Source: a virus
IMG/VR virus record: IMGVR_UViG_3300032268_000973
Coordinates: 96,001-160,000 of that record
Direction: 5' to 3' (one strand)
Length of the DNA: 64,000 nucleotides
Positions 4,541 to 28,987 of the stretch are shown here, piece by piece. Each line of letters begins with the position of its first letter. Positions within the stretch are counted from its first letter, which is position 1. The notes below the pieces were generated by a model that did not search any database, was not told the DNA's origin, and worked only from the letters and a program-made list of their open reading frames with translations. Both the position numbers and the translations under genes were made by a program.

Positions 4541-6208
4541 ATGAATATACTTGGAATATCTGCATTTTATCACGATTCATCCGCGTGTCTTTTTAAGGAC
4601 GGGGAATTGGTATTTGCTTGCGAAGAAGAGAAATTTACAGGAATCAAACACGACAGTTCTTTCCCTAGTCAAACTATAAATTACATCTTGGATCATTATG
4701 GGATCAGTTATGATGACATCGATGTTGTGTGTTATTATGAGGACTTAGACTTGAAATTCAAAAGGATCATAGCAAACTTCAAACGAAATTTTTTTAAATC
4801 TCCGAAATATTGTTTTAGATCAATATTCAAATTTTTGGAGACTAAGAAAAAGTTGAAAAAATTCTTAGAACCTTTTAAAGGGAGAATATTTTTTTCTGAA
4901 CATCATTCATCTCACCAGTATTATTCTTTCTTTTCTTCTGAATTCGAGAAGGCAATTTGTTTATCTATTGATGGTGTTGGCGAAATTGATACCTTAACCT
5001 TTGGAGTTGCAAATGGTGAAAATATTTCATACCACAGTTTAGGACAATATCCTCATTCTTTAGGATTATACTATTCGTGTATGACATCGTTCTTGGGATT
5101 TAAACCAAATGAAGGAGAATATAAATTGATGGGTCTAGCTCCATACGGTGATCCTACTTTGTATATAGAAAAAATACGGGAATTGATATCGTTTAAAAAT
5201 GGGGAATTAATTTGTAACATGAATTTATTTTCTTGGGATCAATCGGATAAGTTAATGTTTGGGGAAAAACTTATGGAACACTTATCTATGACACCAAGAA
5301 TGACGGAAGAAGCTATAACACAAGATCACAAAAATTTGGCAGCCTCGGTTCAACTTAGATATGAAGAAGTTTTGTTTGATGTAATTGAACACCTTGAAGT
5401 ATTAGGGTGTCAAAATCTTTGTTTAGGTGGTGGATCTGCATATAACGGAACTGCAAATGGTAAAATAACTTCTAACTCTCTTATCGATAAAATTTGGATT
5501 CCACCTGCACCTTCAGATGCAGGTTCCTGTATAGGGGCTGTTTTGAATTATTTGGTGAATAATAAGATAGTAACAAACAGATTATATAAGAGTCCTTTTC
5601 TTGGACCTAAATACGAATCAGAAATTTTTGTAAAAGGATTAAAGAATTATGAAGTAGAAGAAATTGAGTCCTCACAAAAATTATTCGAAATAGTTGCGAA
5701 AGAAATTTATGAAGGGAAAATTATCGGGTGGTATCGAGACAGAATCGAGTTTGGAGCACGAGCTTTAGGAAACCGATCTATATTAGCGGACCCAACGAGG
5801 TCTGATATGAAATCAAGGATAAACAAAGTAATAAAGAAGAGAGAGGGGTTCAGGCCATTTGCTCCAATGGTTATACAAGAAAAGCAAAAGAAATATTTTG
5901 ATGTAATTGATGATGTACCCTATATGAACCAAATTGTGAAAGTTAAGAAAAAATACTCAAAAAAATTAAGTGCGGTAGTCCATGTTGATGGAACCTCTCG
6001 GATTCAAACTGTGTATAAAGATAATTCAGTTTACAATTTACTCACTGAATTCGAAAAACTTAGTGGAGTACCAGTACTACTCAATACATCATTTAATGTA
6101 AAAGATAAAACTATGGTTTTAACCCCCCAAGACGCTATTGATACATTCGAAGACACGGAATTGGATTTATTAATAATTGATAATTATATTATAAAGAAAC
6201 GTTTATGA
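4541..6208 (+). CDS. Carbamoyltransferase (NodU/CmcH family)
   Basis: ILGISAFYHDSSA, EEEKF..IKHD, EHH.SH, EGEYKLMGLAPYG, EFGARALGNRSILADP, REGFRPFAP, HVDGTSRIQTV, LLNTSFN. Confidence 0.95.
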   Translation: MNILGISAFYHDSSACLFKDGELVFACEEEKFTGIKHDSSFPSQTINYILDHYGISYDDIDVVCYYEDLDLKFKRIIANFKRNFFKSPKYCFRSIFKFLETKKKLKKFLEPFKGRIFFSEHHSSHQYYSFFSSEFEKAICLSIDGVGEIDTLTFGVANGENISYHSLGQYPHSLGLYYSCMTSFLGFKPNEGEYKLMGLAPYGDPTLYIEKIRELISFKNGELICNMNLFSWDQSDKLMFGEKLMEHLSMTPRMTEEAITQDHKNLAASVQLRYEEVLFDVIEHLEVLGCQNLCLGGGSAYNGTANGKITSNSLIDKIWIPPAPSDAGSCIGAVLNYLVNNKIVTNRLYKSPFLGPKYESEIFVKGLKNYEVEEIESSQKLFEIVAKEIYEGKIIGWYRDRIEFGARALGNRSILADPTRSDMKSRINKVIKKREGFRPFAPMVIQEKQKKYFDVIDDVPYMNQIVKVKKKYSKKLSAVVHVDGTSRIQTVYKDNSVYNLLTEFEKLSGVPVLLNTSFNVKDKTMVLTPQDAIDTFEDTELDLLIIDNYIIKKRL

Positions 6209-6889: not shown

Positions 6890-9625
6890 ATGAAAGGAAC
6901 ATTATTTTCAGCCGATTTTGTAAAAGATTCTAATGGTAATTTAAGATTATTAGAGTTGAACACCGACACTGGATTCATAGACCAAGAGTTGGTGAATTTC
7001 AACTTCGATGAATTCTTAACAGTTTTATCATCAAATAATCTCACTACTTTAGATATTATTTACAAACCATACTTACATATTGATTTTGTGAATAAACTCA
7101 TTGAGGAGGTTAATACCAATCTCCCATCAGTAACAACGGTCAATCTACACGATGAGAATATCAACTCTATCTATCCAACATCCGTAATGGATAATGGAGA
7201 TAACTTTATACTAAGAATTGCCTACGATGAGTCTGCAATTTTTGATAGTACTTATTGTAAAAATAGACTAAATGTCTATAATCTTTTCACCGAAAATTCA
7301 ATTACTGATAATTGTGTTGCCTATTATCATTCCTCCGCTTTAGGAACATTCAACACTCTGGACAAAGAAATAAATGATAGTAATATTCCAGATGTTACAA
7401 TGAAAGACATTAACGAGTCTTTTAATCCGATTGATTTTTTCAAACTTGGTGGAAGTGGAACCCCCGAAGAGAAATGGGATAATTTTATTGCAGCAAATAG
7501 CAGTGATGATAAGTTGATAGAACAATATCATTTTCATTCGAGCGTTCCCGATTCTGATGGACACATGACTTCTATCAGGTATTTTGGTTTAGTATACGGA
7601 CCGAATTTGGATGTTATTACTCTACACACTTATAAAATTAGTGCTATATTCGAGTTGCCATCTACTATAGATTTTGATCCTGACACAAATAAGATTCAAG
7701 ATCAACATTACTATGAGTATACAACAAACTTTGTAAAAAGTGATTCTGGTGGAATTTTATCCAAACATGAAGTTCTAATGGACGATGATTCTTGGATAGA
7801 AATATCTCAGATACAAGTGGGTGAAACTATCAAGTCTTATTATGTTAGTGGATCTCCACAAAGCGAATCAGATTTAAACTCTCTGACATGGAATTATGAC
7901 GGAGGTCAATTTCCTATTGGATCATACATAACAACTTCTGATGTAATTTTCAAGGATGTTCAAACTATGAAGTATGGAGCTATGATGGAGATGGTTGTGG
8001 ATAGTGATTCGTTATTTTCGGGAATAAATAAAAAATATTTAGTTTTTGATAGTTTAACAAACAAAAGTAGTTTCAAGTTTATTTCAGAAATAAATGCAGT
8101 TACCGATTCACTTTACGACTTGGATGGAAACTTGATACAAGTTGATGAACTAAATTTTTATGTATCAACAGATAAAAATTTGACTTTTGTTGAAATAGAT
8201 GTTGAAGATACTGACACATATATAATAAATGGATCCACGGCTTTCCACAGTCTTGTATCTCACAACTCTCCTTGTTTTGTTGCAGGAACAAAGGTTATGA
8301 TGGAAGATGGGTCAACAAAAAATATTGAAGATGTTGTCGTTGGAGATATCGTCATGTCTTTTGATTTCAAAAATGACGAGGTAAGGGCTAGCAAGGTCAA
8401 TAATATTTTTTCAAAGAAGGTTAGTAAAATAGTAACCTACGAGTTTGATAATGGAGGTATTTTGAAGGCAACTTTAGATCACCCATTATTTGTGAATGGA
8501 AAAGGATGGTCCTCCTATGATAATGAGCTTTCAAATAGTTTATATAATATTGGAGAGGAGGTTCATAAAATAGAGGAAGGAGATTCGGTAAAATTATTGA
8601 ACAAAGATGTTAATTTGATTAAAATGACAATTTCTGATGAGGAAATAAAAGTCTTTAATTTATCAGACGTTGAGGTAAATCATAATTATTTCGCAAATGA
8701 TGTCTTAGTCCACAATAGAGCTTGTTTTGTTGAGGGGACTCTTATCGAGATGGGAGACGGATCTCAAAAACCAATCGAACAAATTGAAGTCGGTGACATC
8801 GTTGTATCATGGAATGTATTGGATAACACAAAGGAAAATCAAAAAGTTACTAATTTAATAAAACCAATTCATGATGATTTGGTTAAGTATACTTTTGATA
8901 ATGGTACGGAAATCGTTTGTACATTTGATCACCCATTCTTTGTTAATGGATTTAATTTATCTTCATACTCTCCATTACTCACGAATGAAAGATACAGCTT
9001 CAATGAAAAAGTGAGTGAAATAGAATTAGGGGATAGCGTTAATTTGATAAATGGAGAAAATAGTAGAATTGTTTCGATTGAAGAATTAGAAACCAAACCA
9101 ACCCAAACTTATATTTTTGAAGTCGAAAATAATCATAATTTCTACGCTAATGGTATTTTAACACATAATAAGGCATGTTTTGTAAATGGAACTAAAGTTT
9201 TGATGGGAGATGGTACCGAAAAAGGAATCGAAGAAATCGTGATTGGAGACACAGTAATTTCTTATAATGAAGATCTACATGTGTTGGAGGAAAAAAAGGT
9301 TGTTGACGTTAATTCACCAATTCATGATGATTTGGTCGAGTATGTTTTTTCTGATGGGAAAACTATAATTTCAACTTACGACCACCCATATTATATTGAA
9401 GGGTTAAAATTAGCATCATACAAACCTAGTTGGACAAACGAACGATACCAATTACCTGATGTTACCGAAATAAAAGTTGGGGATAAATTATATACCTCTA
9501 ATGGTAAAACTGTAGAAATATTATCAATAAGAGAACTTGAAAGAATAAACACTCAGACTCATATCATATCTGTCGATGGAAATCGGAATTTTTATGCAAA
9601 TGGGATTTTAGTACATAACAAATAA
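6890..9625 (+). CDS. ATP-grasp-like N-terminal region plus four tandem Hint (intein-like) domains
   Basis: N-terminal SADFVKD..G.LRLLELNTDTG; three units of CFVxGT...TxDHP...NxFyANxxLxHN, and one degenerate unit ending LVSHN. Confidence 0.85.
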   Translation: MKGTLFSADFVKDSNGNLRLLELNTDTGFIDQELVNFNFDEFLTVLSSNNLTTLDIIYKPYLHIDFVNKLIEEVNTNLPSVTTVNLHDENINSIYPTSVMDNGDNFILRIAYDESAIFDSTYCKNRLNVYNLFTENSITDNCVAYYHSSALGTFNTLDKEINDSNIPDVTMKDINESFNPIDFFKLGGSGTPEEKWDNFIAANSSDDKLIEQYHFHSSVPDSDGHMTSIRYFGLVYGPNLDVITLHTYKISAIFELPSTIDFDPDTNKIQDQHYYEYTTNFVKSDSGGILSKHEVLMDDDSWIEISQIQVGETIKSYYVSGSPQSESDLNSLTWNYDGGQFPIGSYITTSDVIFKDVQTMKYGAMMEMVVDSDSLFSGINKKYLVFDSLTNKSSFKFISEINAVTDSLYDLDGNLIQVDELNFYVSTDKNLTFVEIDVEDTDTYIINGSTAFHSLVSHNSPCFVAGTKVMMEDGSTKNIEDVVVGDIVMSFDFKNDEVRASKVNNIFSKKVSKIVTYEFDNGGILKATLDHPLFVNGKGWSSYDNELSNSLYNIGEEVHKIEEGDSVKLLNKDVNLIKMTISDEEIKVFNLSDVEVNHNYFANDVLVHNRACFVEGTLIEMGDGSQKPIEQIEVGDIVVSWNVLDNTKENQKVTNLIKPIHDDLVKYTFDNGTEIVCTFDHPFFVNGFNLSSYSPLLTNERYSFNEKVSEIELGDSVNLINGENSRIVSIEELETKPTQTYIFEVENNHNFYANGILTHNKACFVNGTKVLMGDGTEKGIEEIVIGDTVISYNEDLHVLEEKKVVDVNSPIHDDLVEYVFSDGKTIISTYDHPYYIEGLKLASYKPSWTNERYQLPDVTEIKVGDKLYTSNGKTVEILSIRELERINTQTHIISVDGNRNFYANGILVHNK
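7751..8266 (+). other. Hint domain 0 (degenerate: Gly at position 1, no TxxH, intact HN followed by Ser)
   Basis: GILSKHEVLMDDDSWIEISQIQVGE aligns column-for-column with CFVAGTKVMMEDGSTKNIEDVVVGD; ends VEIDVEDTDTYIING...LVSHN. Confidence 0.65.
8273..8716 (+). other. Hint domain 1 (148 aa, no endonuclease)
   Basis: CFVAGT...ATLDHPLF...NHNYFANDVLVHN; +1 residue Arg. Confidence 0.9.
8723..9169 (+). other. Hint domain 2 (149 aa)
   Basis: CFVEGT...CTFDHPFF...NHNFYANGILTHN; +1 residue Lys. Confidence 0.9.
9176..9619 (+). other. Hint domain 3 (148 aa)
   Basis: CFVNGT...STYDHPYY...NRNFYANGILVHN; +1 Lys, then stop. Confidence 0.9.
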
Positions 9626-9633
9626 TATAAAAA

Positions 9634-9786
9634 ATGGACGTTTCAAAACACCCTCAACTTTACAAAAAAAAACCGCTCAGCGAAGTAAAAAATAGAACAA
9701 CATCTCAGTTATCTACAACCGAAAAACAACGAATCGATAGTGTGATTGGTAAATTTTTTGAGTTGTTCGTGAACAAACATCTGTAA
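9634..9786 (+). CDS. Small hypothetical protein, 50 aa (MDVSKHPQLY...FVNKHL)
   Basis: Fills the gap between the Hint and SET genes; TAATG stop/start overlap with the SET gene. Confidence 0.55.
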   Translation: MDVSKHPQLYKKKPLSEVKNRTTSQLSTTEKQRIDSVIGKFFELFVNKHL

Positions 9787-10223
9787 TGGATCCATACGAT
9801 TACATAAAAGATTGTGTTTTTGTAAAACTTAAGCCAAGTAAAATTTCAGGAATAGGAGTCTTTGCAATCAAAGATATTCCTAAGGATACAATCTTGTTTC
9901 AAACTTGGGAGGGTGAGACTGGATTTTACCCAATTAGTCAAAACCAATTGAACGAATTGGATGATGAAGTACGTCGACATATTCAAGATTTATTCATATA
10001 TTCTTCAGATTTCCCAAAAGATACTAACATTTATGTAAAATTAACAAATGGTTGTCATTGGGTTTATACTAATCCGTACCTATTCATTAACAGTGGATAT
10101 TATGAAAATAAATCAAACGTTGATAAAGATGGTATGAACTCTTTGAGATTTATAAAAAAAGGGGAAGAGTTACTTAGTAACTACCCAAGATATGAAAAAA
10201 TGATTAAGAAAATTTTAATATAA
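9786..10223 (+). CDS. SET-domain protein (divergent)
   Basis: LKPSKISGIGVFAIKDIPK, FINS...N, IKKGEELLSNY. Confidence 0.8.
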   Translation: MDPYDYIKDCVFVKLKPSKISGIGVFAIKDIPKDTILFQTWEGETGFYPISQNQLNELDDEVRRHIQDLFIYSSDFPKDTNIYVKLTNGCHWVYTNPYLFINSGYYENKSNVDKDGMNSLRFIKKGEELLSNYPRYEKMIKKILI

Positions 10224-11341: not shown

Positions 11342-12391
11342 ATGATCGATAAATCAAAATATTTGTGCACTACACCATTTTATTTCACTGAAGTGCAAGA
11401 CACAAAACAATTTCTGTGTTGTCCATCTTGGTTAAAAGAAAACATTGATGATGGAAATGGAATTGTATCTAGTTTCAACTCAGAAAGGGCAAAAGAAATA
11501 AGGGAAAGTATAATTGATGGAAGTTATAGATATTGCGAGGAGAATGAGTGTCCGTATCTATCAAGGTTGAAAAGTAATCGATTGCCTACAAGGTTTATAC
11601 CAAACACCCAAAAAAATGTTGAAATATTGAGACAGAACAAACATCCAAAAACTGTAAATTTTACATTTGATAGGAGTTGTAATTTTGTTTGTCCATCTTG
11701 TCGTCTCGAACTTATCAATTACAAAGGGAATCAAAGAGTTTCGGTTGAAAAAAAATTAGAAGAAATAAATGACGAGATTTCTGAATTTGTTGAACGTTTA
11801 GTAGTCACAGGAAGTGCAGATCCATTTTTCTCAAACTCATTTAGAAAGTTTTTGATCAATCTTGATACTAAAAAATTCAAAAACTTGAAAGGTATACATT
11901 TACATACCAATGCGTCTCTATGGACACCAGAAATGTGGGAAAAGATGAAAAATATTCATGTATACGTAGAAAGTTGTGAAATATCTATAGATGCATCAAC
12001 TAAAGAGACATATGAACAAAAAACAAGAATCGGAGGTAACTGGGATATTTTACATGAAAATTTGAAATTTATAACAAAAATACCAGATATAAAGTTTTAT
12101 ATCTTCTCTTTTGTTGTACAAGATACAAATTATAAAGAAATGTATGATTTCTATAAAATGATAGAGAGTTATATGAAAGAAAGGAATGATGATGCAAAAT
12201 GGGAAGTAAGAACTAATGTGATTGTAAATTGGGGAACATATTCTGAAGAACAATTTAAAGTTAAAGATGTTTCCAATCCCGCTCATCCCGATTATAATTT
12301 ATTTATAGGTGAATTATATAAGATTAAAGATTTTCCAAATATCGTACATAACTTCCATCATTTATATGAGACCAAATCTCCCTTGATATGA
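11342..12391 (+). CDS. Radical SAM protein with N-terminal SPASM/twitch-like Cys cluster
   Basis: CNFVCPSC (CxxxCxxC), GSADPF, TNAS, ISIDA; N-terminal CTTPF...CC...C...CP. Confidence 0.9.
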   Translation: MIDKSKYLCTTPFYFTEVQDTKQFLCCPSWLKENIDDGNGIVSSFNSERAKEIRESIIDGSYRYCEENECPYLSRLKSNRLPTRFIPNTQKNVEILRQNKHPKTVNFTFDRSCNFVCPSCRLELINYKGNQRVSVEKKLEEINDEISEFVERLVVTGSADPFFSNSFRKFLINLDTKKFKNLKGIHLHTNASLWTPEMWEKMKNIHVYVESCEISIDASTKETYEQKTRIGGNWDILHENLKFITKIPDIKFYIFSFVVQDTNYKEMYDFYKMIESYMKERNDDAKWEVRTNVIVNWGTYSEEQFKVKDVSNPAHPDYNLFIGELYKIKDFPNIVHNFHHLYETKSPLI

Positions 12392-14544: not shown

Positions 14545-15202
14545 TATAAATCATAATTTCATTATAGTATGGAATAAAATTATCATTCCAAATTTGACTA
14601 GTAATATCAATTCCATCGAATGAGATAATTTTAAAATTAGGGAAAACTCGTAAATATAAATCCCTGAAAACAGTGAATTTGGATTTCATCCAAGGTTCAC
14701 CTAAATGCCATTCTCCAACTATTTTTCTCACATTATTTTTTATCCAAAACAAATTTTCAACAGTGAATATGTCGTATTCACCTGTTTCACAATCAGTTTT
14801 TAAAAAATCAATTTTTTGTATATTATAATCTTCAATAACTTTTTGGAAAGTTGTTGAATACAAAACATCATTGTTTGAATTTTCGAATACAAATTTAAAA
14901 TCAAATTTACCTATTTTATCAGATATCCCTTTGTTTATGTGTGTAACGTTTCCATGTCTTGTATTCATTGCAAGTGTTTTGAATTCTTCAAAACTTGGTT
15001 CGAAACAAAACACGTGTTTTGGGTTACGATCTAAAATCGAAAATGTAAATGGACCCAAACTAGCCCCGATATCAAAAACGATATCACCTTCCTCGACTTC
15101 GAAAAATCTTTCGTAGATTTTATCTTGAAAAATTTCTTTAGTCACAGTTTCTTGGAATCCATTATAACACTTAGGTTCCCATATAAAATTTTCTAAATTC
15201 AT
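14528..15202 (-). CDS. FkbM-family methyltransferase
   Basis: VFDIGASLG, CFEP, IDFLKTDCETGE. Start moved to the ATG at 15202 (ATGA overlap). Confidence 0.9.
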   Translation of the reverse strand: MNLENFIWEPKCYNGFQETVTKEIFQDKIYERFFEVEEGDIVFDIGASLGPFTFSILDRNPKHVFCFEPSFEEFKTLAMNTRHGNVTHINKGISDKIGKFDFKFVFENSNNDVLYSTTFQKVIEDYNIQKIDFLKTDCETGEYDIFTVENLFWIKNNVRKIVGEWHLGEPWMKSKFTVFRDLYLRVFPNFKIISFDGIDITSQIWNDNFIPYYNEIMIYIDNRN

Positions 15203-18200
15203 ACAAGTAAATTTTGAATTTGATTTATTACCATTTTTGATGTGATTGAAGTGTGACATTCGAATTGTCTTGAAGTCCCTTTGTGGAGGGGACACCAATT
15301 CCAATCACCTCTATCAAACTTGAAGTCGGCATTGTTCCAACAACTGTTACATACGTTAGGATTTGTAATTCTTGTGCAATTTGAAGTAAACTCATGGTCT
15401 TTTTCCGTAAAGTTACTAATCATGACTACGTGTTTTCCTAAAGCCCAAGATAACCAAGACAACCCGCTAGAAAGACCTATAAAGAAGTCACTATGATAAA
15501 TAACATTCATTGTATTTTCTATAGATGTGTCAGTAATTTTTTCACAATTATCGAATGCATTATCTTCCTTAGATACATTGATGACTTTATATCCAATGGA
15601 AGTTAGGTGATTTATCAATTCTTGCCATCCTTCTCTTGTCCAAAATTTACAACCAGCGGTAGAGTTGGTTGCAATTGTAATATATTTTGTATCATACGGG
15701 TTATCTTTTGGGACGAATGAAATTCTTGGCCTAATTTCTTCAAATGGTAACCCCAATATATTTGTCGCAGCTTTCTGTAATGGAATTGTGTTTGGTAAAG
15801 TTGGTTCTTTATTAAGGTCATAAAACCAACCGAGATTATATTGCCCAAATATACCGTGAACTATACTTCCAGGTTCCACAAATTCTAAATTTGGATAAAC
15901 ATCCTTGAATAACTTGTTCCAATAAGTACAAACTGTAACATCACATTGATGAACCTCTTTGAATTTTTCAACATATGGTAACCAAGCAATGTTGTCCCCC
16001 AAAGATTTACTATCGAAATTTATAAAAACACGAAGACCTGTATAGTCCAAAGTTTTATCGTATATCAAATCTCCATTCTCAAATATTTTTGTTCTCCAAC
16101 GGGTAAAATATTCCCTATTCAATTTTATCCAATGATTTGATTTAATGACATTGTGATAATGACAATAATTTTCTTCGTCGAACAACATGATGCTAAAATC
16201 GCTATCACTTTCTCCTTTGATTTCTAAGAAAGGTTGGTTAATAAAATATTGGGTTATTGAAATATTTGGATCAATCATATTATTTTTTTTGATTTCATTA
16301 GACATTATTTTTTTATAAAAAATATAATGAGTATCTGCAAATTTCTCTAAAGAACCTTTAGTCTCATTATATTTTCTTTCTGAACTTATTAGATCTCGTA
16401 ATATTTGAACATTTCTTTCCAAATCTTCTTCGAGATTTACAATGAATGGATCAAACATTTCCATGTATTGTGGTAAATTACGGCAAATAATTTTTAATCC
16501 ATAAGAAGCCGCTTCTCTCACAACTAATGGATTACATTCCCAAGTTGAATTGAAAATAAAAACATCTGAAGCTTTCATAAATGTTTCAATGTCTCCTCTT
16601 TCTCCCCAAATATGAACATTGGAAGGTAAATTCAACATTAATGGTTTCCAATATTCCTCAAAGTTTGGGGCTTGATTACCCACGAAATGGAATTCAACTC
16701 CCTCAGATTGAAAATATCTTGCGATATCGATAGCTTCCTTTTGATTTTTTCCTTGTGACCATAGCCCAACACTCAATACATGAATTTTTGTTGGGTCAAA
16801 GTCCAATTCCATTTGCGCGTTTGTCTGATCTTCTTTATTTCTGAATTTATTTTCAATCGGAAATTCCATTACCTCAGTTGGAGAAGACACATTTTTGAAT
16901 GTTTGTTGTTCATGGAATGGAGTACAAAAAGAGTATCCGTCGGGGTCATATTTCTTCATCAATTCTGGTTTAAACCAAATGTTGTGACAAGTTTCCACCA
17001 TTCTCCAAGTTCTATTATTATCATATAAAGCTTTCATTACAGTTCCTGAAACTTTATTGAATGAGTCAAAACCTTCTATCATTTCATCCACATGTACAAT
17101 ATCGATATTATTTCGTTTGATGATGTCGATTATCTTCAGTGAATCCGTGTCATTATTATTACCTAATGAATTCAGGGTCCAAAATCTATTTTCGGGAATA
17201 ATATTTTTGATAATATCTCGTTGAACGGTATATGTTGATGAATACAGGCAATATTCAACAACGTAGATTTCAATCTCAGGATAATTTTTTTGTAATGATT
17301 GAATTCTTTTCAATAGGTATGCTGGCATTCCTCCAGTCGATAAATGTGGGGCCAAATAAAGTATTCGGAGTTTTTTGGAAAACTTGTCTGAAAAAAACTC
17401 ATTATTTTTGTCGTTCCAAGGTGAGTTAATAAGCAAATTTTCAGAGATTGAAGTATCTCCAACTTCAAAATTTAATTCTGATAGTGTGGTATAATAAACA
17501 TCAGATGTAAGATTAGTTGCACTATAAAAATCTCTATTTACCGAAGCAAAATAATCCATAAATTTAAATTCCCCTCCGATTAAATTTTTACCTAAATTTA
17601 CATAATGGTTTGGCACACCATAAGCATCTGATACAATTAAACCGTGTAAACTTGAAGATAGAATCAATTCACATTCCAATAATTGATCTATAAATTCATA
17701 GATACCAGCGGTAATATTCACAATTTTTACCCCCAAATCTTCTAACTGGTTGATTGTCTTTAAACATAAATCCGATTGAAAATCTGAATAGTGGGGTATA
17801 ACACCATACTTATATCGTTTTTCAATATTCGGATTATACTTTTTCGGGAAAAGTAATGCGGGATCACCAAACACATTTGGAACATCCCATCCATTTTTCA
17901 ACAAACAATTTCTTGTTAGAGGGCCTCGAACTGCATAAACTTTTTGCGGTATATCACCTATGCTGTAAGGATCCAAACATCCTGGCCCCCAAACATAATC
18001 ATTGGGTTTGGAAAATAGGAGATTACTTCCGACAGATAAAATTTTACCATTTTTTTCAATCATTTGTCCCTCAGTGTCAAAATGAAAAACATCCGTATCT
18101 TCTAACGATTTCTGTGAAAAGTGAGTTAAAATATGTTTCGATACTATATCTCCCCAATTATTTTCAGGTTTTATATATTCGTATTTTCTTATATAGAAAT

Positions 18201-20943
18201 ATTTTTGGATATCGTGCATCATCATCTCCATTATTTCGGGATCTTTTTCTCCGTGAAAAAACAGGACTTGTTCTTTGATTGATGGAGCTCTTAACCAATC
18301 TCCCAAAAAGTTTAAAACATCTGGACCTTTATATTCCACTTGTGTAAACATCTTCTTAACAGTTTCCAAAGTTCCGTTGACGTATAGGTATGGAAGACCA
18401 ATGTCTATTTTGTATTTCCAAAGTAAAACATTCAAGATGGTTTCTTCATCATAAGGGGCATAATGGCTTATGTCTTTTTCAATTTTTGGGTGTTTACACA
18501 TCCAATACCATTCATCTAAGAAGTCCAAAGTATTTTGACCTGCCACAAAGTAACCCGTTTGTCTGTATAGTTTTCTGACCGATTGGTCGACACTAAAAAG
18601 TTCACAAGCATTGTGTTCTAATGTATCACATAATTCCCCTCCTAATGGTCCTCCTTTACCTCTTCCATTGTATGTAAGATATTCATATACACCTTCAACA
18701 AAATATGGGAAAGGTGATTTACGGTCGTAGTAAAAGAAGATTGTGTCAACTAATGGTGTTGCAACTGAATCACTATCCACATAACAAACGTTGTGGGCAT
18801 ATTTTTGAAGAGCGTCTTTAATTATGAGAGGTCTTTGAATTAAAATCTTATATATTGTTGGATTTTTTCTATCAATATAAAAATTACCTTCAACGGATAG
18901 GTATGAATTTTCATCTGGTTGGTCAATATCACAATCCCATCGTATGACTGTTACGTCATCCACATTTATTTTTTTGTTGGAGTTAATCAAATAAACTATG
19001 ATTGGAATTCCACTATATCTTCTGATTGATTTGACACACATTGTGACAACATCCAAATAATTTTCAGTACAATATAGAACAAACGCTTTGTCTGATTTGG
19101 ACTGATACTTATCTGTGAAGTAATACCCGTATTCGTCATTCGAATAGATCATATTCAACTTTGGATATCTTGATGACATTACCTTAGGGGTCAAATCATA
19201 TTGATGATGGGTTTCATACTTATTTCCAAAGCATTCACTTTGTTTCATCAAATAATGAACCCCAACCAAGCAAGTTTTAAATTTGAAGTGTATTCGATCA
19301 ATCAAATCAACTGATTGAACTTCTGTCAAGTGATCCAATACATCCCCTAAAATTAAAAAATCGTATTCACTGAAGTCAAAGTCACATATGTCTCCAATGA
19401 ATACGTTGTCATATTTTTCTCGTAAATTAAATTCACTAACATAGGGTTCCCAAATTTCTATGCAATCCATTTGATAACCAAATTGCCTTAATAAGTCAGA
19501 ATATGTTCCTTTTCCTGGCCCAACATCTAAAATTTTACTGTCTAAAGGAATATTTGCGATTATAAAATCCCTTACTTCTTCTTTATAAAATTTATTATTT
19601 TCGGAGCAATATTGAACAAGTTCTTTGAAATGTTTTGGAGATTCTTTTGAATTAGGATTCATAATTATGAATTCGTCTTTAGAAACGTTAGTTCCATACA
19701 AATAACCGTGATAAGTAATAGCACCGTTGTATATCAAATTTATTTCATTTTCAATTTGAAATTCTCTAACTGGAGAATCAACTCTGTAAAATCTATAATC
19801 ATCTATTAACGATAGGATTGCTTTGCTGTAAGCGACAGGACCCGTCAAATGAAGGACAGCTTTTTTTCCTTTTTTTCCATCATAATTTCTTATGTTTTCT
19901 TTGACAAGTTCAATAGTTTGTTTTAAAAAAGGGTGATTTGGAACACTTATAATGTGCCAGTTTTGAAATTCCCCCAACTGGTATTCTAATAATTCATTCC
20001 AATCTTTTCCAATCCAATGAGAGAGTAAGTATTCATCTGTTGGGAGAATTGTTTCACTCAAAGGTCTACTCGTTGAAGATTTGATATCTAGATAGACACC
20101 TCCGATTTTATAAATCAAAAGGTATCTGAAAAAATCAGCTCTACATGATCCATAATTGGGATTTATACTTAGATATAACGAAAGTGTTTCATCATCATAA
20201 TGTTCTTTGATAAAATTGTAACAATCTTCGTCATCATAAAATCTATATTCGAAATCAGGATTCATTTTTTTTAAATTTTCTACCGTATTCTCGATTTCTT
20301 TTGGTAGTTCTTTCGTCCTGAATGTTTGATGAATTATTTTAGGTATTTTTATTTTTGTGAGAACAACATCGGTTTCATTGTAACTTATTTGATAATTTTT
20401 GAATCTTTGAAGTAATTTATTTATTTCTTCGATGTTGGATACATTTGGGTGTTTTTCGAATTTGATTTTGTCAGCAAATAATATTGGTAATTTTTCACAC
20501 ATATCTAAATAGTCATTCAGAATTACGTGATCATATCCTTCAGTATCAATTTTTAAGTATCCAATAGACCCTACTTCTTCACTTTGAACTAGAGTCTTCC
20601 AAGAAACGGTGGGTACTTTATCAATTTTTACAATTGAATTGTATAGTTCCTCACCTAATTCTTTAATAGCAAAAGGATGAGGGTGATTTACGCTATTACT
20701 TCCTCTTATCCACCATTTTAAATCGTGTTCTTTAATTTTTTCATCAGGTATGTAATAAATGTCTATGTCACCGTCCACATCTGATACCGCTAGTTGAATT
20801 TTTTTGACGTTTTTTTTATTTGGTAATCTGTCTAAATAATATTTTATCGGTTCTATACTAAGACCAACCATATTATCGTCCGACGATTCAATTAAAGTGT
20901 CAAAATCGGATGTCCCGATTTCTATAAAATCGTAATGTTTCAT
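15199..20943 (-). CDS. 1914-aa multidomain transferase: FkbM MTase + GT32 + SAM MTase + GT-A + polysaccharide pyruvyltransferase + GT4 + BAHT (AAH/TibC-type) heptosyltransferase
   Basis: FIEIGTSDF...LKIDTEG; IPKIIHQT...GGVYLDIK; ILDVGPGKG; CYVDSDS; NWGDI...VRGPLT...SSSLHGLI; YLAPHLSTGG...ECNPLVVREA; SLGDNIAW...CNSCW...WCP...QFEC. Confidence 0.85.
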   Translation of the reverse strand: MKHYDFIEIGTSDFDTLIESSDDNMVGLSIEPIKYYLDRLPNKKNVKKIQLAVSDVDGDIDIYYIPDEKIKEHDLKWWIRGSNSVNHPHPFAIKELGEELYNSIVKIDKVPTVSWKTLVQSEEVGSIGYLKIDTEGYDHVILNDYLDMCEKLPILFADKIKFEKHPNVSNIEEINKLLQRFKNYQISYNETDVVLTKIKIPKIIHQTFRTKELPKEIENTVENLKKMNPDFEYRFYDDEDCYNFIKEHYDDETLSLYLSINPNYGSCRADFFRYLLIYKIGGVYLDIKSSTSRPLSETILPTDEYLLSHWIGKDWNELLEYQLGEFQNWHIISVPNHPFLKQTIELVKENIRNYDGKKGKKAVLHLTGPVAYSKAILSLIDDYRFYRVDSPVREFQIENEINLIYNGAITYHGYLYGTNVSKDEFIIMNPNSKESPKHFKELVQYCSENNKFYKEEVRDFIIANIPLDSKILDVGPGKGTYSDLLRQFGYQMDCIEIWEPYVSEFNLREKYDNVFIGDICDFDFSEYDFLILGDVLDHLTEVQSVDLIDRIHFKFKTCLVGVHYLMKQSECFGNKYETHHQYDLTPKVMSSRYPKLNMIYSNDEYGYYFTDKYQSKSDKAFVLYCTENYLDVVTMCVKSIRRYSGIPIIVYLINSNKKINVDDVTVIRWDCDIDQPDENSYLSVEGNFYIDRKNPTIYKILIQRPLIIKDALQKYAHNVCYVDSDSVATPLVDTIFFYYDRKSPFPYFVEGVYEYLTYNGRGKGGPLGGELCDTLEHNACELFSVDQSVRKLYRQTGYFVAGQNTLDFLDEWYWMCKHPKIEKDISHYAPYDEETILNVLLWKYKIDIGLPYLYVNGTLETVKKMFTQVEYKGPDVLNFLGDWLRAPSIKEQVLFFHGEKDPEIMEMMMHDIQKYFYIRKYEYIKPENNWGDIVSKHILTHFSQKSLEDTDVFHFDTEGQMIEKNGKILSVGSNLLFSKPNDYVWGPGCLDPYSIGDIPQKVYAVRGPLTRNCLLKNGWDVPNVFGDPALLFPKKYNPNIEKRYKYGVIPHYSDFQSDLCLKTINQLEDLGVKIVNITAGIYEFIDQLLECELILSSSLHGLIVSDAYGVPNHYVNLGKNLIGGEFKFMDYFASVNRDFYSATNLTSDVYYTTLSELNFEVGDTSISENLLINSPWNDKNNEFFSDKFSKKLRILYLAPHLSTGGMPAYLLKRIQSLQKNYPEIEIYVVEYCLYSSTYTVQRDIIKNIIPENRFWTLNSLGNNNDTDSLKIIDIIKRNNIDIVHVDEMIEGFDSFNKVSGTVMKALYDNNRTWRMVETCHNIWFKPELMKKYDPDGYSFCTPFHEQQTFKNVSSPTEVMEFPIENKFRNKEDQTNAQMELDFDPTKIHVLSVGLWSQGKNQKEAIDIARYFQSEGVEFHFVGNQAPNFEEYWKPLMLNLPSNVHIWGERGDIETFMKASDVFIFNSTWECNPLVVREAASYGLKIICRNLPQYMEMFDPFIVNLEEDLERNVQILRDLISSERKYNETKGSLEKFADTHYIFYKKIMSNEIKKNNMIDPNISITQYFINQPFLEIKGESDSDFSIMLFDEENYCHYHNVIKSNHWIKLNREYFTRWRTKIFENGDLIYDKTLDYTGLRVFINFDSKSLGDNIAWLPYVEKFKEVHQCDVTVCTYWNKLFKDVYPNLEFVEPGSIVHGIFGQYNLGWFYDLNKEPTLPNTIPLQKAATNILGLPFEEIRPRISFVPKDNPYDTKYITIATNSTAGCKFWTREGWQELINHLTSIGYKVINVSKEDNAFDNCEKITDTSIENTMNVIYHSDFFIGLSSGLSWLSWALGKHVVMISNFTEKDHEFTSNCTRITNPNVCNSCWNNADFKFDRGDWNWCPLHKGTSRQFECHTSITSKMVINQIQNLLV

Positions 20944-21881
20944 TTTAAAATTTCTAAAATTTTGTTAAAAACTTGTAACACGTTTGGATGACAAACAAAT
21001 TCTGATTTGTTTTCCAAACATCCAATCAACGGGGGTACTCCCCGAATAGAATCCCATTCCCTTACACCATATCTCATATCAGATGCACAAGCAATTTTAC
21101 AAGCACCATCAACATAATGATATTTGTAATCTTGTGATCCATTTCTATAAGGTGCTCTTAATTTGTGATTTATTGAACCACCGAGTTGAATGATGTTTGC
21201 GTCCGTTGTTCCTGCTAAATGTAGAAACCCTGAGTCCATTGTAACAACAGCCAAACTTTTTTGCATCAACCACCAAGTTTGAGAAATTGAGGTGAGGTTC
21301 ATTAAATTCAATCCATCTCGAATTGGGAAATCAAAAATTGGTTTTTGAACTTTGTGAAATCCATCTTCTTGAGAATTTTTACCGACCGAAATAACCGAAA
21401 TACCTGAATCGTTCAACATAGTTGTAAGTAATACCCACTTTTCTGCTGACCAAGTTCTTGATGGCCAAGATTGAACGGGATGTATTACCACAAACTTTTC
21501 AGGTAAATTAGGAATTGGTTTCCATTCATCAGGAAAATAATCCATTTGACATTCCTCGGGTAAAAGTTGAAATCCAAGGCCTGCGGCATGAAATTGCCTG
21601 ATATCCATCACGTTATGCCTCAAACCAAGACCATACCTATTTTCCAAGTTGGGTGCAAAACTTACTAGTAATTCATAGTTGTCTTGTAATTCCTCCCTAT
21701 TAGAATTATCTGTATTGTAAATTCGATTTACATACTTGTTGTTTTTGAATAAATGAGGGAAATCAGTTAGGACTGAGATTCTTTTTCCGTATACGTAAAA
21801 AAGTTTTCGTAAAGATGGAGTAGAACAAATTGTGTCTCCGAGTCCTTTACATAAGTGTAAATCTAATAATGGTTCTTTCAT
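20940..21881 (-). CDS. GT9-family (heptosyltransferase-like) glycosyltransferase with C-terminal Cys cluster
   Basis: GLGDTICSTP, VVIHP...SRTWS..KW, VTMDSGFLHLAG; C-terminal CKIAC...C...C. Confidence 0.85.
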   Translation of the reverse strand: MKEPLLDLHLCKGLGDTICSTPSLRKLFYVYGKRISVLTDFPHLFKNNKYVNRIYNTDNSNREELQDNYELLVSFAPNLENRYGLGLRHNVMDIRQFHAAGLGFQLLPEECQMDYFPDEWKPIPNLPEKFVVIHPVQSWPSRTWSAEKWVLLTTMLNDSGISVISVGKNSQEDGFHKVQKPIFDFPIRDGLNLMNLTSISQTWWLMQKSLAVVTMDSGFLHLAGTTDANIIQLGGSINHKLRAPYRNGSQDYKYHYVDGACKIACASDMRYGVREWDSIRGVPPLIGCLENKSEFVCHPNVLQVFNKILEILK

Positions 21882-25429: not shown

Positions 25430-28400
25430 ATGGAAGTTCAATGTACGATAAATAATATAACAGGACAGACCCCCTACGACATATATGTTTGTCAAACGGA
25501 TGGTAGTGGTTGTTTTTATATTTCAACTATAAATAACTCATCTTTCCCTTATGTGTTTAACATACCAGCACCATACAACACTTCACCAAATTATATGATC
25601 AAGGCAATTGACGCCAATAACTGTATTATATCAGGAAGTAGCGCTGTTCAATTCTTTCCAACTCCTACACCAACCCCTTGGGACTTCTGTTACGAACTTG
25701 ATGGAGGATTCAACAATCAAGCGGAGGCTGCGGTTGAAGATTCGAGTGGAAGAATTATTTTTGGTGGTATTTTTACAACTTATAGTGGGCAATCATTCAA
25801 TCGAATTGTTCGTGTCAATAGTAATGGCAGTATTGATAACACGTTCACTATTGGAACTGGATTCGATAATGACGTTTATGCAGTTGAATTACAACCTGAT
25901 GGAAAAATTCTTGTTGGAGGTATATTCTCATCTTATAGTGGAGTTTCTGCGAATAAAATCATACGACTTAATTCTGACGGAACTGTGGATAATACATTTT
26001 CTAGTGGTTCTGGTTTTAATTTTTCAGTATGGTCTTTTGCAGTACAACCTGACGGGAAAATAGTTGTGGGTGGAGGATTTACTACTTACAGTGGGCAATC
26101 GGCTAATTCGATTATCAGATTAAACAGTGATGGCTCGATTGATAACTCATTTAGTATTGGTTCAGGATTGAATAACATTGCATACGATATTATTGAACAA
26201 ACGGACGGTAAAAAGTTAGTTCTTGGTTCATTTACGTCTTACAGTGGACAAACACATAATAGAATTCTTAGATTGAATAACGACGGGACCGTTGACAATA
26301 CCCTGAACGTTGGGACTGGATTCAATAGTGAGGTGTATTCATGTGTATTGGAAGATGATGGAAAAATGGTAATTGTAGGACTTTTCGACCAATTTAGTGG
26401 ACAAACTTACCGTCAAATTGTAAAATTGAATGCTGATGGATCGATTGATAATACATTTAATGTTGGAACTGGATTCCAAAGGTCTGTTGGATTATGTTTT
26501 GCTTTGAGTGTCTTCAAGTATGACACAAAATATTTTATTACAGGTGATTTTGATTTTTATAATGGAAATAGTGCAAATGGACTGATACAGCTCAATAGTG
26601 ATGGAAGTAAGGATACCTCATTCAATTACGGAACAGGATTATTATTTAGTGGTACTTCTTTCAATACAGGATTACTTCTCTCAAGCGGAGTTCACATAGT
26701 CTATGGCCAATTTACTCAATATAATGGATATGAAGTGAATGATGTGGCTTATTTGAATCCATTTGGTACTTTATTGAATTGTCCTCAATTGACACCAACA
26801 CCTACTGCAACGCCAACATTGACCCCAACAAATACACCAACAACTACAAGAACCCCAACAAATACACCAACAACCACTTCAACTCCAACAAATACACCAA
26901 CAACCACTTCAACTCCAACAACTACACCAACAACTACAACAACTCCAACTAATACTTCAACAATTAATATTACACCTACTGCGACGCCAACAAATACAAC
27001 AACAACTACAACAACTCCAACGCCATCCCCTACGTATGGTGGACTCACACCATTTGTTTCAGTTTGGAATACTTCGAATACTAGTGTAGGGTCGAGTGCT
27101 TCAAATCAGATTGCATTACCGCTTCAATCAAGCGGAGCTTATAATTTTGTTGTAAATTGGGGTGATAGTAACACCAACACAATCACGTCTTGGAACCAAC
27201 CTGAAGTGACTCATACTTACGCAAGTCCTGGCCAATATACAATTACAATTAGTGGAACTTGCGAAGACTTCGGATTTGGAGGAGGAGGTGATAGGAATAA
27301 ACTTCTGACTATTATATCTTTCGGGAATGTGGTTTTAGGTGATATTACAACACAATTCTCCAACTGTTTTAATTTAACTTTGACTGGAGTCACTGATACT
27401 CCTGATTTATCATCTATGACTACATTAGCGCAAATGTTCTATGGATGTAGTGGGTTGACTACAATTAACAATATAAATTTGTGGGATGTAAGTAACATAA
27501 CTAACATGCTGAGCATGTTTCAAGGGGCAACTAATTTTAACGATGATATAAGTTCTTGGGATGTTTCAAACGTGACTAATACGTCTTACATGTTCTCAGC
27601 GGCACAAGATTTCAATCAGGATATTGGTAGTTGGGATGTTTCTAATGTTACAAATATGGGTGGTATGTTCCAATTTGCAAGTAGTTTCAATCAAGATTTG
27701 AACACTTGGAACGTATCAAGTGCTACAACTTTTTCCTATATGTTCCAAGGAGCAACAGCATTTGATAGCAACATTAGTTCTTGGAATGTTTCGAACGCCA
27801 CAACTATGGTTCAAATGTTCGATCAAGCAACTTCATTCAACCAAAGTATAAGTGGATGGAATGTATCTAACGTCACAACCATGATTGGTATGTTTGGTTC
27901 TGCATCATCATTCAACCAAAATATTGATTCTTGGAATGTTTCTAACGTTACGAACATGGCGTCTATGTTCACTAATGCGGATAGTTTCAATCAGAGTTTG
28001 AATAGTTGGAATGTTTCTAATGTTACGAACATGGCGGGAATGTTTAGTTTGGCTAATGTATTCAATGGAGACATAACATCTTGGAATGTTTCAGGGGTGA
28101 CCAATATGGGCCAAATGTTTCTATCTGCAGTTAGTTTTAACCGAAATATTGGTAGTTGGAACGTTTCAAATGTAACAAATATGGGTCAAATGTTTGCTTC
28201 AGCGTCAATCTTCAATCAGGATATTAGTTCTTGGGATGTTTCGAGTGTAACAGATATGGGATCGATGTTTAATAGCGCTTTAGCATTTAACCAAAATATT
28301 GATACATGGGATGTTTCGAGTGTAACAGATATGTTCTTCATGTTTTCTAATGCAAATAGTTTTAATCAAAATCTTAATAGTTGGAACGTTTCAAATGTAA

Positions 28401-28987
28401 CTACAATGGAGTTAATGTTCTATGGTGCGGACAATTTTAATGGAAATGTCAGTAATTGGAATGTATCAGGAGTAACAAGCATGGCAGGAATGTTTTGGGA
28501 CGCGACTACATTTAATCAAAATATTGGTGGTTGGGATGTTTCAAATGTCACCGATATGAGTAGAATGTTCCGAAGTGCGGCGGCATTCAATCAAAACATC
28601 AGTGGATGGGATGTATCTAGTGTCACTAACATGCTAGAAATGTTCTATTTAGCCGCAAACTTCAATCAAAACATTGGTGGATGGGATGTTTCGAGTGTAA
28701 CAGATATGGAGGGAATGTTCAATAGTGCAAGTATTTTCGATCAAAATATCGGAAGCTGGGATATTTCTAATGTGACTAATTTTGTAGATTTCATGAACAA
28801 TAAAACATTTACGAATTATAGTTCAACTAACCTTAATGCTATTTATAATGGATGGAGTTTGTTGACCCTACAACCTAATATAGTGATTGATTTCAATACA
28901 ATAAAATACACTGCGGCTGGACAATCAGGAAGAAACATTTTGACAGGAGCCCCAAACAATTGGTCAATTACTGACGGAGGTATATAA
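25430..28987 (+). CDS. Putative adhesin/receptor-binding protein: N-module + delta-60 beta-propeller + PT linker + PKD-like + DUF285/BspA-like repeats
   Basis: Seven QPDGKI(L/V)VGG...RLNSDG..DNTF-type repeats; VNWGD...HTY PKD-like motif; 18 W(N/D)VS.VT.M..MF repeats. Confidence 0.8.
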   Translation: MEVQCTINNITGQTPYDIYVCQTDGSGCFYISTINNSSFPYVFNIPAPYNTSPNYMIKAIDANNCIISGSSAVQFFPTPTPTPWDFCYELDGGFNNQAEAAVEDSSGRIIFGGIFTTYSGQSFNRIVRVNSNGSIDNTFTIGTGFDNDVYAVELQPDGKILVGGIFSSYSGVSANKIIRLNSDGTVDNTFSSGSGFNFSVWSFAVQPDGKIVVGGGFTTYSGQSANSIIRLNSDGSIDNSFSIGSGLNNIAYDIIEQTDGKKLVLGSFTSYSGQTHNRILRLNNDGTVDNTLNVGTGFNSEVYSCVLEDDGKMVIVGLFDQFSGQTYRQIVKLNADGSIDNTFNVGTGFQRSVGLCFALSVFKYDTKYFITGDFDFYNGNSANGLIQLNSDGSKDTSFNYGTGLLFSGTSFNTGLLLSSGVHIVYGQFTQYNGYEVNDVAYLNPFGTLLNCPQLTPTPTATPTLTPTNTPTTTRTPTNTPTTTSTPTNTPTTTSTPTTTPTTTTTPTNTSTINITPTATPTNTTTTTTTPTPSPTYGGLTPFVSVWNTSNTSVGSSASNQIALPLQSSGAYNFVVNWGDSNTNTITSWNQPEVTHTYASPGQYTITISGTCEDFGFGGGGDRNKLLTIISFGNVVLGDITTQFSNCFNLTLTGVTDTPDLSSMTTLAQMFYGCSGLTTINNINLWDVSNITNMLSMFQGATNFNDDISSWDVSNVTNTSYMFSAAQDFNQDIGSWDVSNVTNMGGMFQFASSFNQDLNTWNVSSATTFSYMFQGATAFDSNISSWNVSNATTMVQMFDQATSFNQSISGWNVSNVTTMIGMFGSASSFNQNIDSWNVSNVTNMASMFTNADSFNQSLNSWNVSNVTNMAGMFSLANVFNGDITSWNVSGVTNMGQMFLSAVSFNRNIGSWNVSNVTNMGQMFASASIFNQDISSWDVSSVTDMGSMFNSALAFNQNIDTWDVSSVTDMFFMFSNANSFNQNLNSWNVSNVTTMELMFYGADNFNGNVSNWNVSGVTSMAGMFWDATTFNQNIGGWDVSNVTDMSRMFRSAAAFNQNISGWDVSSVTNMLEMFYLAANFNQNIGGWDVSSVTDMEGMFNSASIFDQNIGSWDISNVTNFVDFMNNKTFTNYSSTNLNAIYNGWSLLTLQPNIVIDFNTIKYTAAGQSGRNILTGAPNNWSITDGGI
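25697..26780 (+). repeat. Delta-60-type repeats (7 units)
   Basis: About 51-aa units GTGFN..V.....Q.DGK....G.F..Y.G......RLN.DG..D.TF. Confidence 0.8.
27482..28831 (+). repeat. 18 x 25-aa DUF285 repeats (75-nt period)
   Basis: First Trp codon at 27482, eighteenth at 28757, a difference of exactly 17 x 75 nt. Confidence 0.9.

Follow-up and report, generated by a model that had tools for sequence, protein, structure and literature searches.

The window analysed here is a 64,000-nucleotide stretch, positions 96,001 to 160,000 of the IMG/VR virus record IMGVR_UViG_3300032268_000973 (183 kb, CheckV completeness 61%), and on the basis of this record the source is reasonably called a phage, uncultured and large. 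At 6890..9625 (+), the window contains a single open reading frame (ORF) of 911 amino acids (aa), in which a putative ligase is fused to consecutive Hint domains, and which has full-length relatives of 46-98% identity, all starting from the same Met1. The protein begins with an N-domain (residues 1-286, 6890..7747), with an invariant E22-x-N24, assigned by fold searches as a putative, circularly permuted amide ligase of ATP-grasp-like type, continues with a predicted Hint-fold domain without Cys1 and TxxH, here named unit 0 (residues 288-459, 7751..8266), and ends with three canonical Hint units, i.e. unit 1 (C462-N609, 148 aa, 8273..8716), unit 2 (C612-N760, 149 aa, 8723..9169) and unit 3 (C763-N910, 148 aa, 9176..9619). 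Between these lie the linkers Ser460-Pro461 (8267..8272), Arg610-Ala611 (8717..8722) and Lys761-Ala762 (9170..9175), and at the end of the chain the terminal Lys911 with its stop codon (9620..9625), all as read from the sequence. All these features are on the + strand, as is a second ORF of 50 aa (9634..9786), here called the partner ORF, which begins 8 nt past the stop codon of the ligase-Hint gene and was overlooked in the initial annotation of this DNA. The junctions of the array read ...SHN-SP-C462, ...VHN-RA-C612, ...THN-KA-C763 and ...VHN-K-stop, letter for letter as annotated initially.

With the whole protein as query, three Hint-clan stretches were assigned on residues 462-910 in Pfam, each model returning all three: Intein_splicing (E 2.8e-24, 86 bits against a cut-off of 35.8), Hint (E 4.4e-19, 69 bits against 29.7) and PT-HINT (PF07591; E 7.1e-15, 55.9 bits against 27.7), whereas the top single Pfam score was that of AXH (E 5.4e-34). 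Searched singly, every unit passed at least one Hint-clan model, unit 1 with Intein_splicing (40 bits, and AXH with 55 bits), unit 2 with Intein_splicing (47 bits), and unit 3 with PT-HINT (33.2 bits, and AXH with 34 bits), the PT-HINT scores of units 1 and 2 being under the cut-off; the NCBIfam intein N- and C-terminal models were passed as well. This is the profile search that had been proposed as a check in the initial annotation. The catalytic motifs of block A (Cys1), block B (TxxH) and block G (His-Asn) are present in units 1-3, with the unit lengths first reported, and no unit is long enough to contain a homing endonuclease, as was also first stated. In the PDB, unit 2 was the best sequence match of the array, to the bacterial intein-like (BIL) domain BIL2 of Tetrahymena (6TMM, E 2.8e-16), and the Clostridium thermocellum BIL domain 2LWY was also matched (E 1.1e-6).

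Pairwise identity among units 1-3 is 35-51%, and at the DNA level only the short Cys1 and TxxH motifs recur, at a spacing of 450/453 nt, so that the duplication is old, and neither recent nor an assembly artefact. No other Hint domain or intein was found in the 183-kb record. A search of the record for Gp23, the T4 capsid protein, had no match, and gave none in any control genome either. When 50,697 deposited phage genomes, a collection that may lack near relatives, were searched at both the DNA and the protein level, no relative of the whole protein was returned, the only matches (about 31% identity) being to ordinary inteins of helicase and terminase genes.

Unit 0 had no Pfam or PHROG match even at an E-value of 10. 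The profile of its family aligned to that of the canonical units with 87% probability (hhalign, E 4e-6, 124 columns), and its AlphaFold (AF2) model, built on 92 relatives with a pLDDT of 89, had as its top Foldseek match Tetrahymena BIL2 (6Y75; E 2.9e-8, TM 0.69/0.80), and also matched the C. thermocellum BIL 2LWY (E 9.2e-8, TM 0.69/0.86), many inteins, and Hedgehog (1AT0, E 3e-5). These profile and model comparisons indicate that unit 0 has the Hint fold. In the place of Cys1 there is an invariant Gly288, and the block B position holds no His, so TxxH is missing; at the other end Asn459 is invariant and His458 near-invariant (92 and 64 diverse sequences). Unit 0 could at most act at its C-terminal end, and looks like an older Hint which decayed and was then exapted. 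The initial count of four Hint domains is thus retained in part, with three canonical domains by Pfam, and a first one which is Hint at the level of fold but has no Pfam match, Cys1 or TxxH.

The N-domain returned no sequence match in Pfam, NCBIfam, PHROG or the PDB, its family profile included. Top Foldseek matches of its AlphaFold model (pLDDT 78) were YgiC/YjfC of Escherichia coli, the plant, yeast and human (homo)glutathione synthetases, and the glutathionylspermidine synthetases (GspS) and trypanothione synthetases (E 2e-5 to 1e-3, probability 1.0 at E 2e-5, TM 0.32-0.42), a list that agreed between two independent structure searches. Alignment to 3kaj with VIA-align resulted in a Z of 7.8, in the middling range for this tool, with an rmsd of 5.0 over 207 residues, and paired model residue 1 with chain residue ~147. 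Language-model neighbours of the domain included ATP-grasp families (0.86-0.88), which is a lead only. In circularly permuted ATP-grasp enzymes, e.g. eukaryotic glutathione synthetase, the Mg/ATP motif falls early in the chain, and the invariant E22-L-N24, which ends the strand 18-24 after a beta-hairpin at the start of the protein, is a candidate for this motif. It is probable, not proven, that residues 1-286 form a circularly permuted ATP-grasp ligase of the glutathione synthetase/GspS type. The possibility that an N-terminal part of the ATP-grasp fold is encoded upstream was rejected, as the upstream ORF is a 2-oxoglutarate (2OG)-Fe(II) oxygenase and Met1 is invariant in the relatives.

Homologues of the partner ORF (44-53 aa in the family) were found directly downstream of the gene in 7/7 inspected loci, regardless of the number of Hint units, and within 0-100 nt after the gene in 80/80 IMG/VR loci, and no feature of the locus is more constant than the partner ORF. 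Its conserved features are a Tyr-Lys pair near the N-terminus and the C-terminal pattern ...F..YFKAKH[S/L], also given as ...F.ELF..KH[L/S]. When residues 1-461 were predicted in complex with the partner, an ipSAE of 0.92 was obtained, whereas the highest-scoring of three controls reached 0.02; in the calibration of the tool, 58/80 solved complexes and 2/110 mismatched pairs reached this level. Three runs agreed in at least 90% of the contacts, with a partner pLDDT of at least 88. Contacts are predicted at residues 8-33, 117-141 and 221-254 of the ligase domain and 363-376, 399-403 and 420-431 of unit 0, which supports a putative binding of the partner to both domains.

At least 864 metagenome relatives (46-98% identity) were recovered in a word-indexed search, and an exhaustive HMMER search that took just the N-domain as query resulted in 246 cluster representatives, in which the N-domain begins at residue 1 whenever the domain start is included. 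Domain parsing covered 213 members, and here N-domain and unit 0 always occur together. Behind unit 0 there is no canonical unit in 16 members, one unit in 32, one unit and a diverged terminal unit in 48, two units in 81, three units in 26, and other partial combinations in 10. Both of the two Hint-less members that were checked are complete genes inside contigs, and the Hint-less tails are short (HN-K, HN-AKEEV, HN-AKSY, HN-KPKQPKK, HN-PAPPPKL). The diverged terminal unit (the last ~140 aa, e.g. in P0081, P0122 and P0147), present in about a quarter of the relatives, is Vint-like (PF14623), lacks His-Asn, and ends with ...SGLGDN plus 15-20 residues. Several of the Vint-like units have tails ending with ...L(I/T)KHL, which resembles the partner C-terminus ...KHL/KHS, the stretch being too short to interpret. 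In a further relative (P0233, 647 aa), a 52-aa Cys-rich extension, possibly a released peptide, follows the HN-K of a single Hint unit.

Across the family the linkers vary freely between 0 and 12 aa, and only their first residue is constrained. Before the first canonical unit, [SA]-P is common; after it, Arg stands at +1 in 133/156 first units, with the remainder of the linker variable, and in no relative was a domain found between units. The dipeptides therefore look like linkers rather than products, and their role as cyclodipeptides or activated RA/KA was rejected on the same grounds. Arrays do recur in relatives, as the initial annotation had asked to be counted, with copy numbers (0-3) and spacers that are not fixed, and the dipeptide layout is no feature of design.

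In 322 full units of the relatives, Cys1 is present in 322/322 and His-Asn in 321/322, and in the 283 distinct units C1, T67, H70, H147 and N148 are each 100% conserved, which indicates that the autoprocessing chemistry is under selection. The same conservation makes it very improbable that the Hints are non-catalytic, AXH-like structural or binding modules in a chain that stays whole: AXH did give the top single Pfam score, and unit 0 is predicted to be a Hint fold serving in binding, yet it would be hard to account for Cys1, the block B Thr and His, and the terminal His-Asn being kept in every distinct unit of such modules.

In the unit tree, the first units were separated from the last and middle units, the leaves of one clade being first units in 111/117 cases, and units 1, 2 and 3 of the present protein belong to the first-unit, middle-unit and last-unit clades, respectively. 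Proteins with two units thus go back a long way, and their units are orthologous by position, which together with the 35-51% identity of units 1-3 and the motif-sized DNA repeats rules out a recent tandem duplication. Middle units of the three-unit proteins form one clade of 23, nested with the last units, and a different lineage acquired a third unit of its own, unrelated to these. Identities to distant three-unit relatives are 42-45% in the core and 49-58% in the units, whose rate of evolution thus does not exceed that of the enzyme core.

At +1, i.e. the residue behind the terminal Asn, the protein has R610, K761 and K911, where a canonical class 1 intein requires Cys, Ser or Thr. Among the 322 full units Lys or Arg stands here in about 96%, Thr in two, and Cys or Ser never; in the last units the residue is Lys in 134/134 from two- and three-unit proteins, and Lys in 27 and Arg in 5 of the single-unit proteins. 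After the last unit a single Lys and the stop codon follow in 113/139. Instead of being inserted at a conserved site, the units lie past the last core domain, and their 'exteins' are the 0-12 variable residues and the final Lys. The initial view that this is not a canonical parasitic intein is accordingly upheld by the +1 residues, the variable C-terminal tail and the lack of an endonuclease. Hint motifs with a C-terminal His-Asn, no +1 nucleophile, a variable region and no endonuclease are the attributes of A-type BIL or PT-HINT domains, which are located in variable regions of non-conserved proteins (PMC7765530). As Arg replaces Lys at +1, it is charge and not nucleophilicity that is indicated, and with a basic residue at this position, from which Cys and Ser are absent, cleavage rather than classical splicing is the expected main outcome. 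BIL domains have no nucleophile at +1, and most of their products are cleaved at the N- or C-terminus (PMC7664689).

The reading we favour, with somewhat better than even confidence, is a self-removing Hint tail of the BIL type on an ATP-grasp-like ligase/partner module. The constant core would consist of the ATP-grasp-like carboxylate-amine ligase (1-286) and the exapted, N-terminally dead Hint (288-459), and the two domains together would hold the 50-aa partner. Each Cys1, aided by the His of TxxH, would convert the preceding peptide bond to a thioester, and each terminal Asn, aided by the preceding His, would cut the bond behind it via succinimide formation. By such autocleavage at the N- and C-termini of the units, which we infer from the sequence, the tail of about 450 aa would detach from the ligase core and break into single units, the 2-residue spacers serving as linkers, and the freed core would then work with its partner. 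The core would be the working enzyme, the partner its putative substrate or carrier, and the tail an element which may serve maturation or regulation and would not be pure baggage. Because about a quarter of the relatives end in the Vint-like unit without His-Asn, thioester formation is the sole reaction open to every unit of the family.

A route to splicing without a nucleophile at +1 could also be drawn from the same residues. By aminolysis of the BIL type, or by attack of a Lys side chain, the array would be erased, and ...HN-SPRAKAK left on the core. One mutation turns BIL domains into efficient splicers (PMC7664689), and BIL2, the closest solved relative, ligates without ATP through the epsilon-amine of a Lys as the nucleophile (PMC8616854). 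Even the last unit, with just one Lys behind it, retains His-Asn and the basic +1 residue, and the tails of the Hint-less members are short, and basic or Pro-rich, like concatenated linkers. Wild-type BIL domains without a +1 nucleophile reportedly yield some spliced product as well, in work ascribed to Dassa in 2004 and Aranko in 2013. This reading is nevertheless improbable, since the first units mostly carry Arg, a poor nucleophile, at +1, the Vint-like last unit could not splice in this manner, the concatenated tails are conserved in neither sequence nor length, and cleavage products predominate in BIL domains.

The thioester could alternatively be used for transfer, in the manner of Hedgehog or of the ciliate BUBL locus, so that a unit would pass the ligase core or a loaded partner onto an amine in an ATP-independent conjugation, the candidate acceptors being amines such as lysines in the partner, in host proteins or in the virion. 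The fully conserved Cys1 and TxxH would suit this chemistry, the Vint/Hog-like terminal units of the relatives are of the thioester-only type, and the invariant Tyr-Lys of the partner is modelled on residues 424-426 of unit 0. The Hint-less members, however, retain the partner and its Tyr-Lys, and its role therefore needs no thioester; nothing resembling a ubiquitin fold precedes the units, and the idea, being purely inferential, is given a low probability. In its polyubiquitin locus, BIL2 is flanked by ubiquitin-like domains on both sides (PMC8616854). A further reading is a phage-encoded system for tagging proteins or peptides, in which the ligase would act on the partner clamped by the dead Hint, and the intact Hints would transfer either the partner or the enzyme to amines on target proteins, by a thioester or by an exposed N-terminal Lys or Arg, with the number of Hints setting the shots per chain. 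We regard this as a speculative and improbable reading; if true, the system would be the viral counterpart of the BUBL 'ubiquitin-dispensing' platform, a locus which reportedly holds several BIL domains, in work ascribed to Dassa in 2004.

Several observations weigh against the self-removing tail as favoured here. Pro stands at -1 of the first unit in 135/156 first units, and in intein expression work Pro in this position slows N-terminal cleavage, so the cut that frees the core may instead be made by Asn459 of unit 0. Simple self-removal does not explain why +1 is almost universally basic, nor why a lone Lys ends the chain. The ATP-grasp call is one of fold only, and a TM of 0.32-0.42 and a Z of 7.8 can reflect a common arrangement; in the complex prediction, a self-made partner alignment of 7 rows was used. 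Finally, about 51 changes in unit number were counted on the core tree of 204 sequences, over which Hint-less lineages are scattered, and this would also fit dispensable passengers.

As passengers, the canonical units would be endonuclease-less mini-intein or BIL elements, duplicated in a tolerant C-terminal tail without a function of their own, and kept catalytically intact only since the ligase would suffer from a tail left uncut. To the frequent changes of copy number between 0 and 3 and the scattered Hint-less lineages may be added that third units were gained at least two times independently, that the linkers are unconstrained, and that unit 0 resembles an older Hint, decayed and then exapted. 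Yet one stop codon after unit 0 could remove the units cheaply, and 95% of the sampled members keep at least one; the first- and last-unit clades persist down to about 35% core identity, decayed canonical units amount to 0/322, and the units have neither an endonuclease nor other evident means of spreading, in a record where no further inteins were seen. Passenger elements are accordingly considered unlikely, though of the alternatives to the self-removing tail they are the least improbable.

The other neighbours of the gene are only partly conserved. Within 4 kb of it, in the 80 related loci, a 2OG-Fe(II) oxygenase was found in 51, a SET-domain protein in 29, a radical SAM protein in 22, and a carbamoyltransferase in 20. 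In the window, a SET-domain protein of 145 aa (9786-10223, +; PF00856, E 1.2e-5) is encoded immediately behind the partner ORF, and as the partner has an invariant Lys, a neighbouring lysine methyltransferase may be relevant. Two small 2OG-Fe(II) oxygenase genes (PF13640; 6327-6821 and 10892-11341, +) flank the ligase-Hint gene, the upstream one being that with a counterpart in 51/80 loci. Genes for the radical SAM protein (11342-12391, +) and the carbamoyltransferase (4541-6208, +) have the same orientation as the Hint gene, and their synteny is preserved on a contig of 326 kb (L004) that encodes a relative with 60% identity.

Farther downstream, a 1914-aa ORF (15199-20943, -) is followed by a GT9 heptosyltransferase-like gene (20940-21881), and as relatives have glycosyltransferase domains at the matching place (L004), the long ORF looks like a large glycan-modifying protein. 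A 1185-aa protein (25430-28987, +), matched several times over by PHROGs whose function is unknown (phrog_17273, E 4e-136; phrog_3649 in 7 stretches), is probably a repeat-rich structural or fibre protein. The 793-aa product of 40446-42827 (+) is an SbcC/gp46-like recombination nuclease subunit (phrog_77, E 3.5e-42), and its nearest deposited relatives, in uncultured megaphages and the Microcystis phage Mel-JY01, share just 22-24% identity, which suggests that cultured phages represent this lineage poorly.

Known Hints occur as single inteins, as C-terminal processors of the Hedgehog type, or as BIL domains with cargo between them. Apparently no natural chain has been described in which fully competent Hints are joined head to tail, and in the present family it is long-conserved and widespread in metagenomic virus contigs. 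The array offers a natural test bed of adjacent Hint active sites without exteins and with a basic +1 residue, and may be a source of compact self-cleaving modules; the locus is likewise an entry to an uncharacterised ligase/small-protein pair in hundreds of environmental virus contigs (IMG/VR, at least one marine sample). If the thioesters do serve transfer, a new viral conjugation chemistry would be at hand.

Among the known systems, the A-type BIL or PT-HINT domain (e.g. 2LWY) is similar in being a mini Hint with Cys1, TxxH and His-Asn, without a Cys or Ser at +1 and without an endonuclease, which is located in variable parts of non-essential proteins, and for which N- and C-terminal autocleavage is expected, as is predicted here. 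Unlike in that type, two to three units abut head to tail at the very C-terminus with linkers of 0-12 residues, +1 is almost always Lys or Arg, and the host protein is a phage ATP-grasp-like ligase instead of a secreted or toxin protein. BIL2 of BUBL1 in Tetrahymena thermophila (6TMM/6Y75) is the closest solved sequence relative of the canonical units and the top fold match of unit 0. In BUBL, however, a ciliate locus, ubiquitin-like cargo separates the BIL domains and is dispensed, whereas in this phage protein there is no cargo and just 1-2 residues between units, so that it is no polyprotein of the BUBL type. With class 1 mini-inteins (gp41-1, 6QAZ; the helicase inteins of Vibrio phages) the units share the fold and the catalytic motifs, and about 31% identity with phage helicase inteins, and differ in having no +1 nucleophile, no conserved site, a C-extein of one Lys, and a variable copy number. 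In Hedgehog/Hog and Vint proteins, a C-terminal autoprocessing Hint frees the N-terminal protein through the Cys1 thioester, and it is with Vint-like units that some of the relatives end; the three units of this protein, in contrast, keep the terminal His-Asn and have no sterol-recognition region.

Enzymes of the glutathione synthetase and GspS type activate the C-terminal carboxylate of a peptide and join it to an amine. Eukaryotic glutathione synthetase, GspS/trypanothione synthetase and YgiC/YjfC were the best fold matches of residues 1-286, and in the permuted eukaryotic glutathione synthetase, too, E-x-N is found near the start of the aligned region. The N-domain differs from these enzymes in its size of ~285 aa, in having no sequence similarity to them, and in being fused to Hints and paired with a 50-aa protein. 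In LysX/LysW and the graspetide ligases, an ATP-grasp enzyme stands beside a carrier or precursor of ~50 aa which it binds; this is a lead only, and unlike these ligases of the RimK type, the N-domain is probably of the glutathione synthetase/GspS structural type. In searches of about 8.4 million papers and preprints no description of head-to-tail abutting Hints, or of a Hint array on an ATP-grasp ligase, was found, and a comparative jumbo-phage survey holds no mention of a ligase-Hint array. The initial statement that no system of this layout is described is in this respect supported, and has to be narrowed in another, as the ciliate BUBL polyubiquitin-like loci reportedly carry several BIL domains in one chain, and as there are described BIL domains that lack a nucleophile at +1 (PMC8616854, PMC7664689). 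The components are thus of known kinds, i.e. BIL-type Hints and a glutathione synthetase/GspS-like ligase fold, and what is new is the way they are arranged, together with the dead, exapted Hint and the partner that is obligatory.

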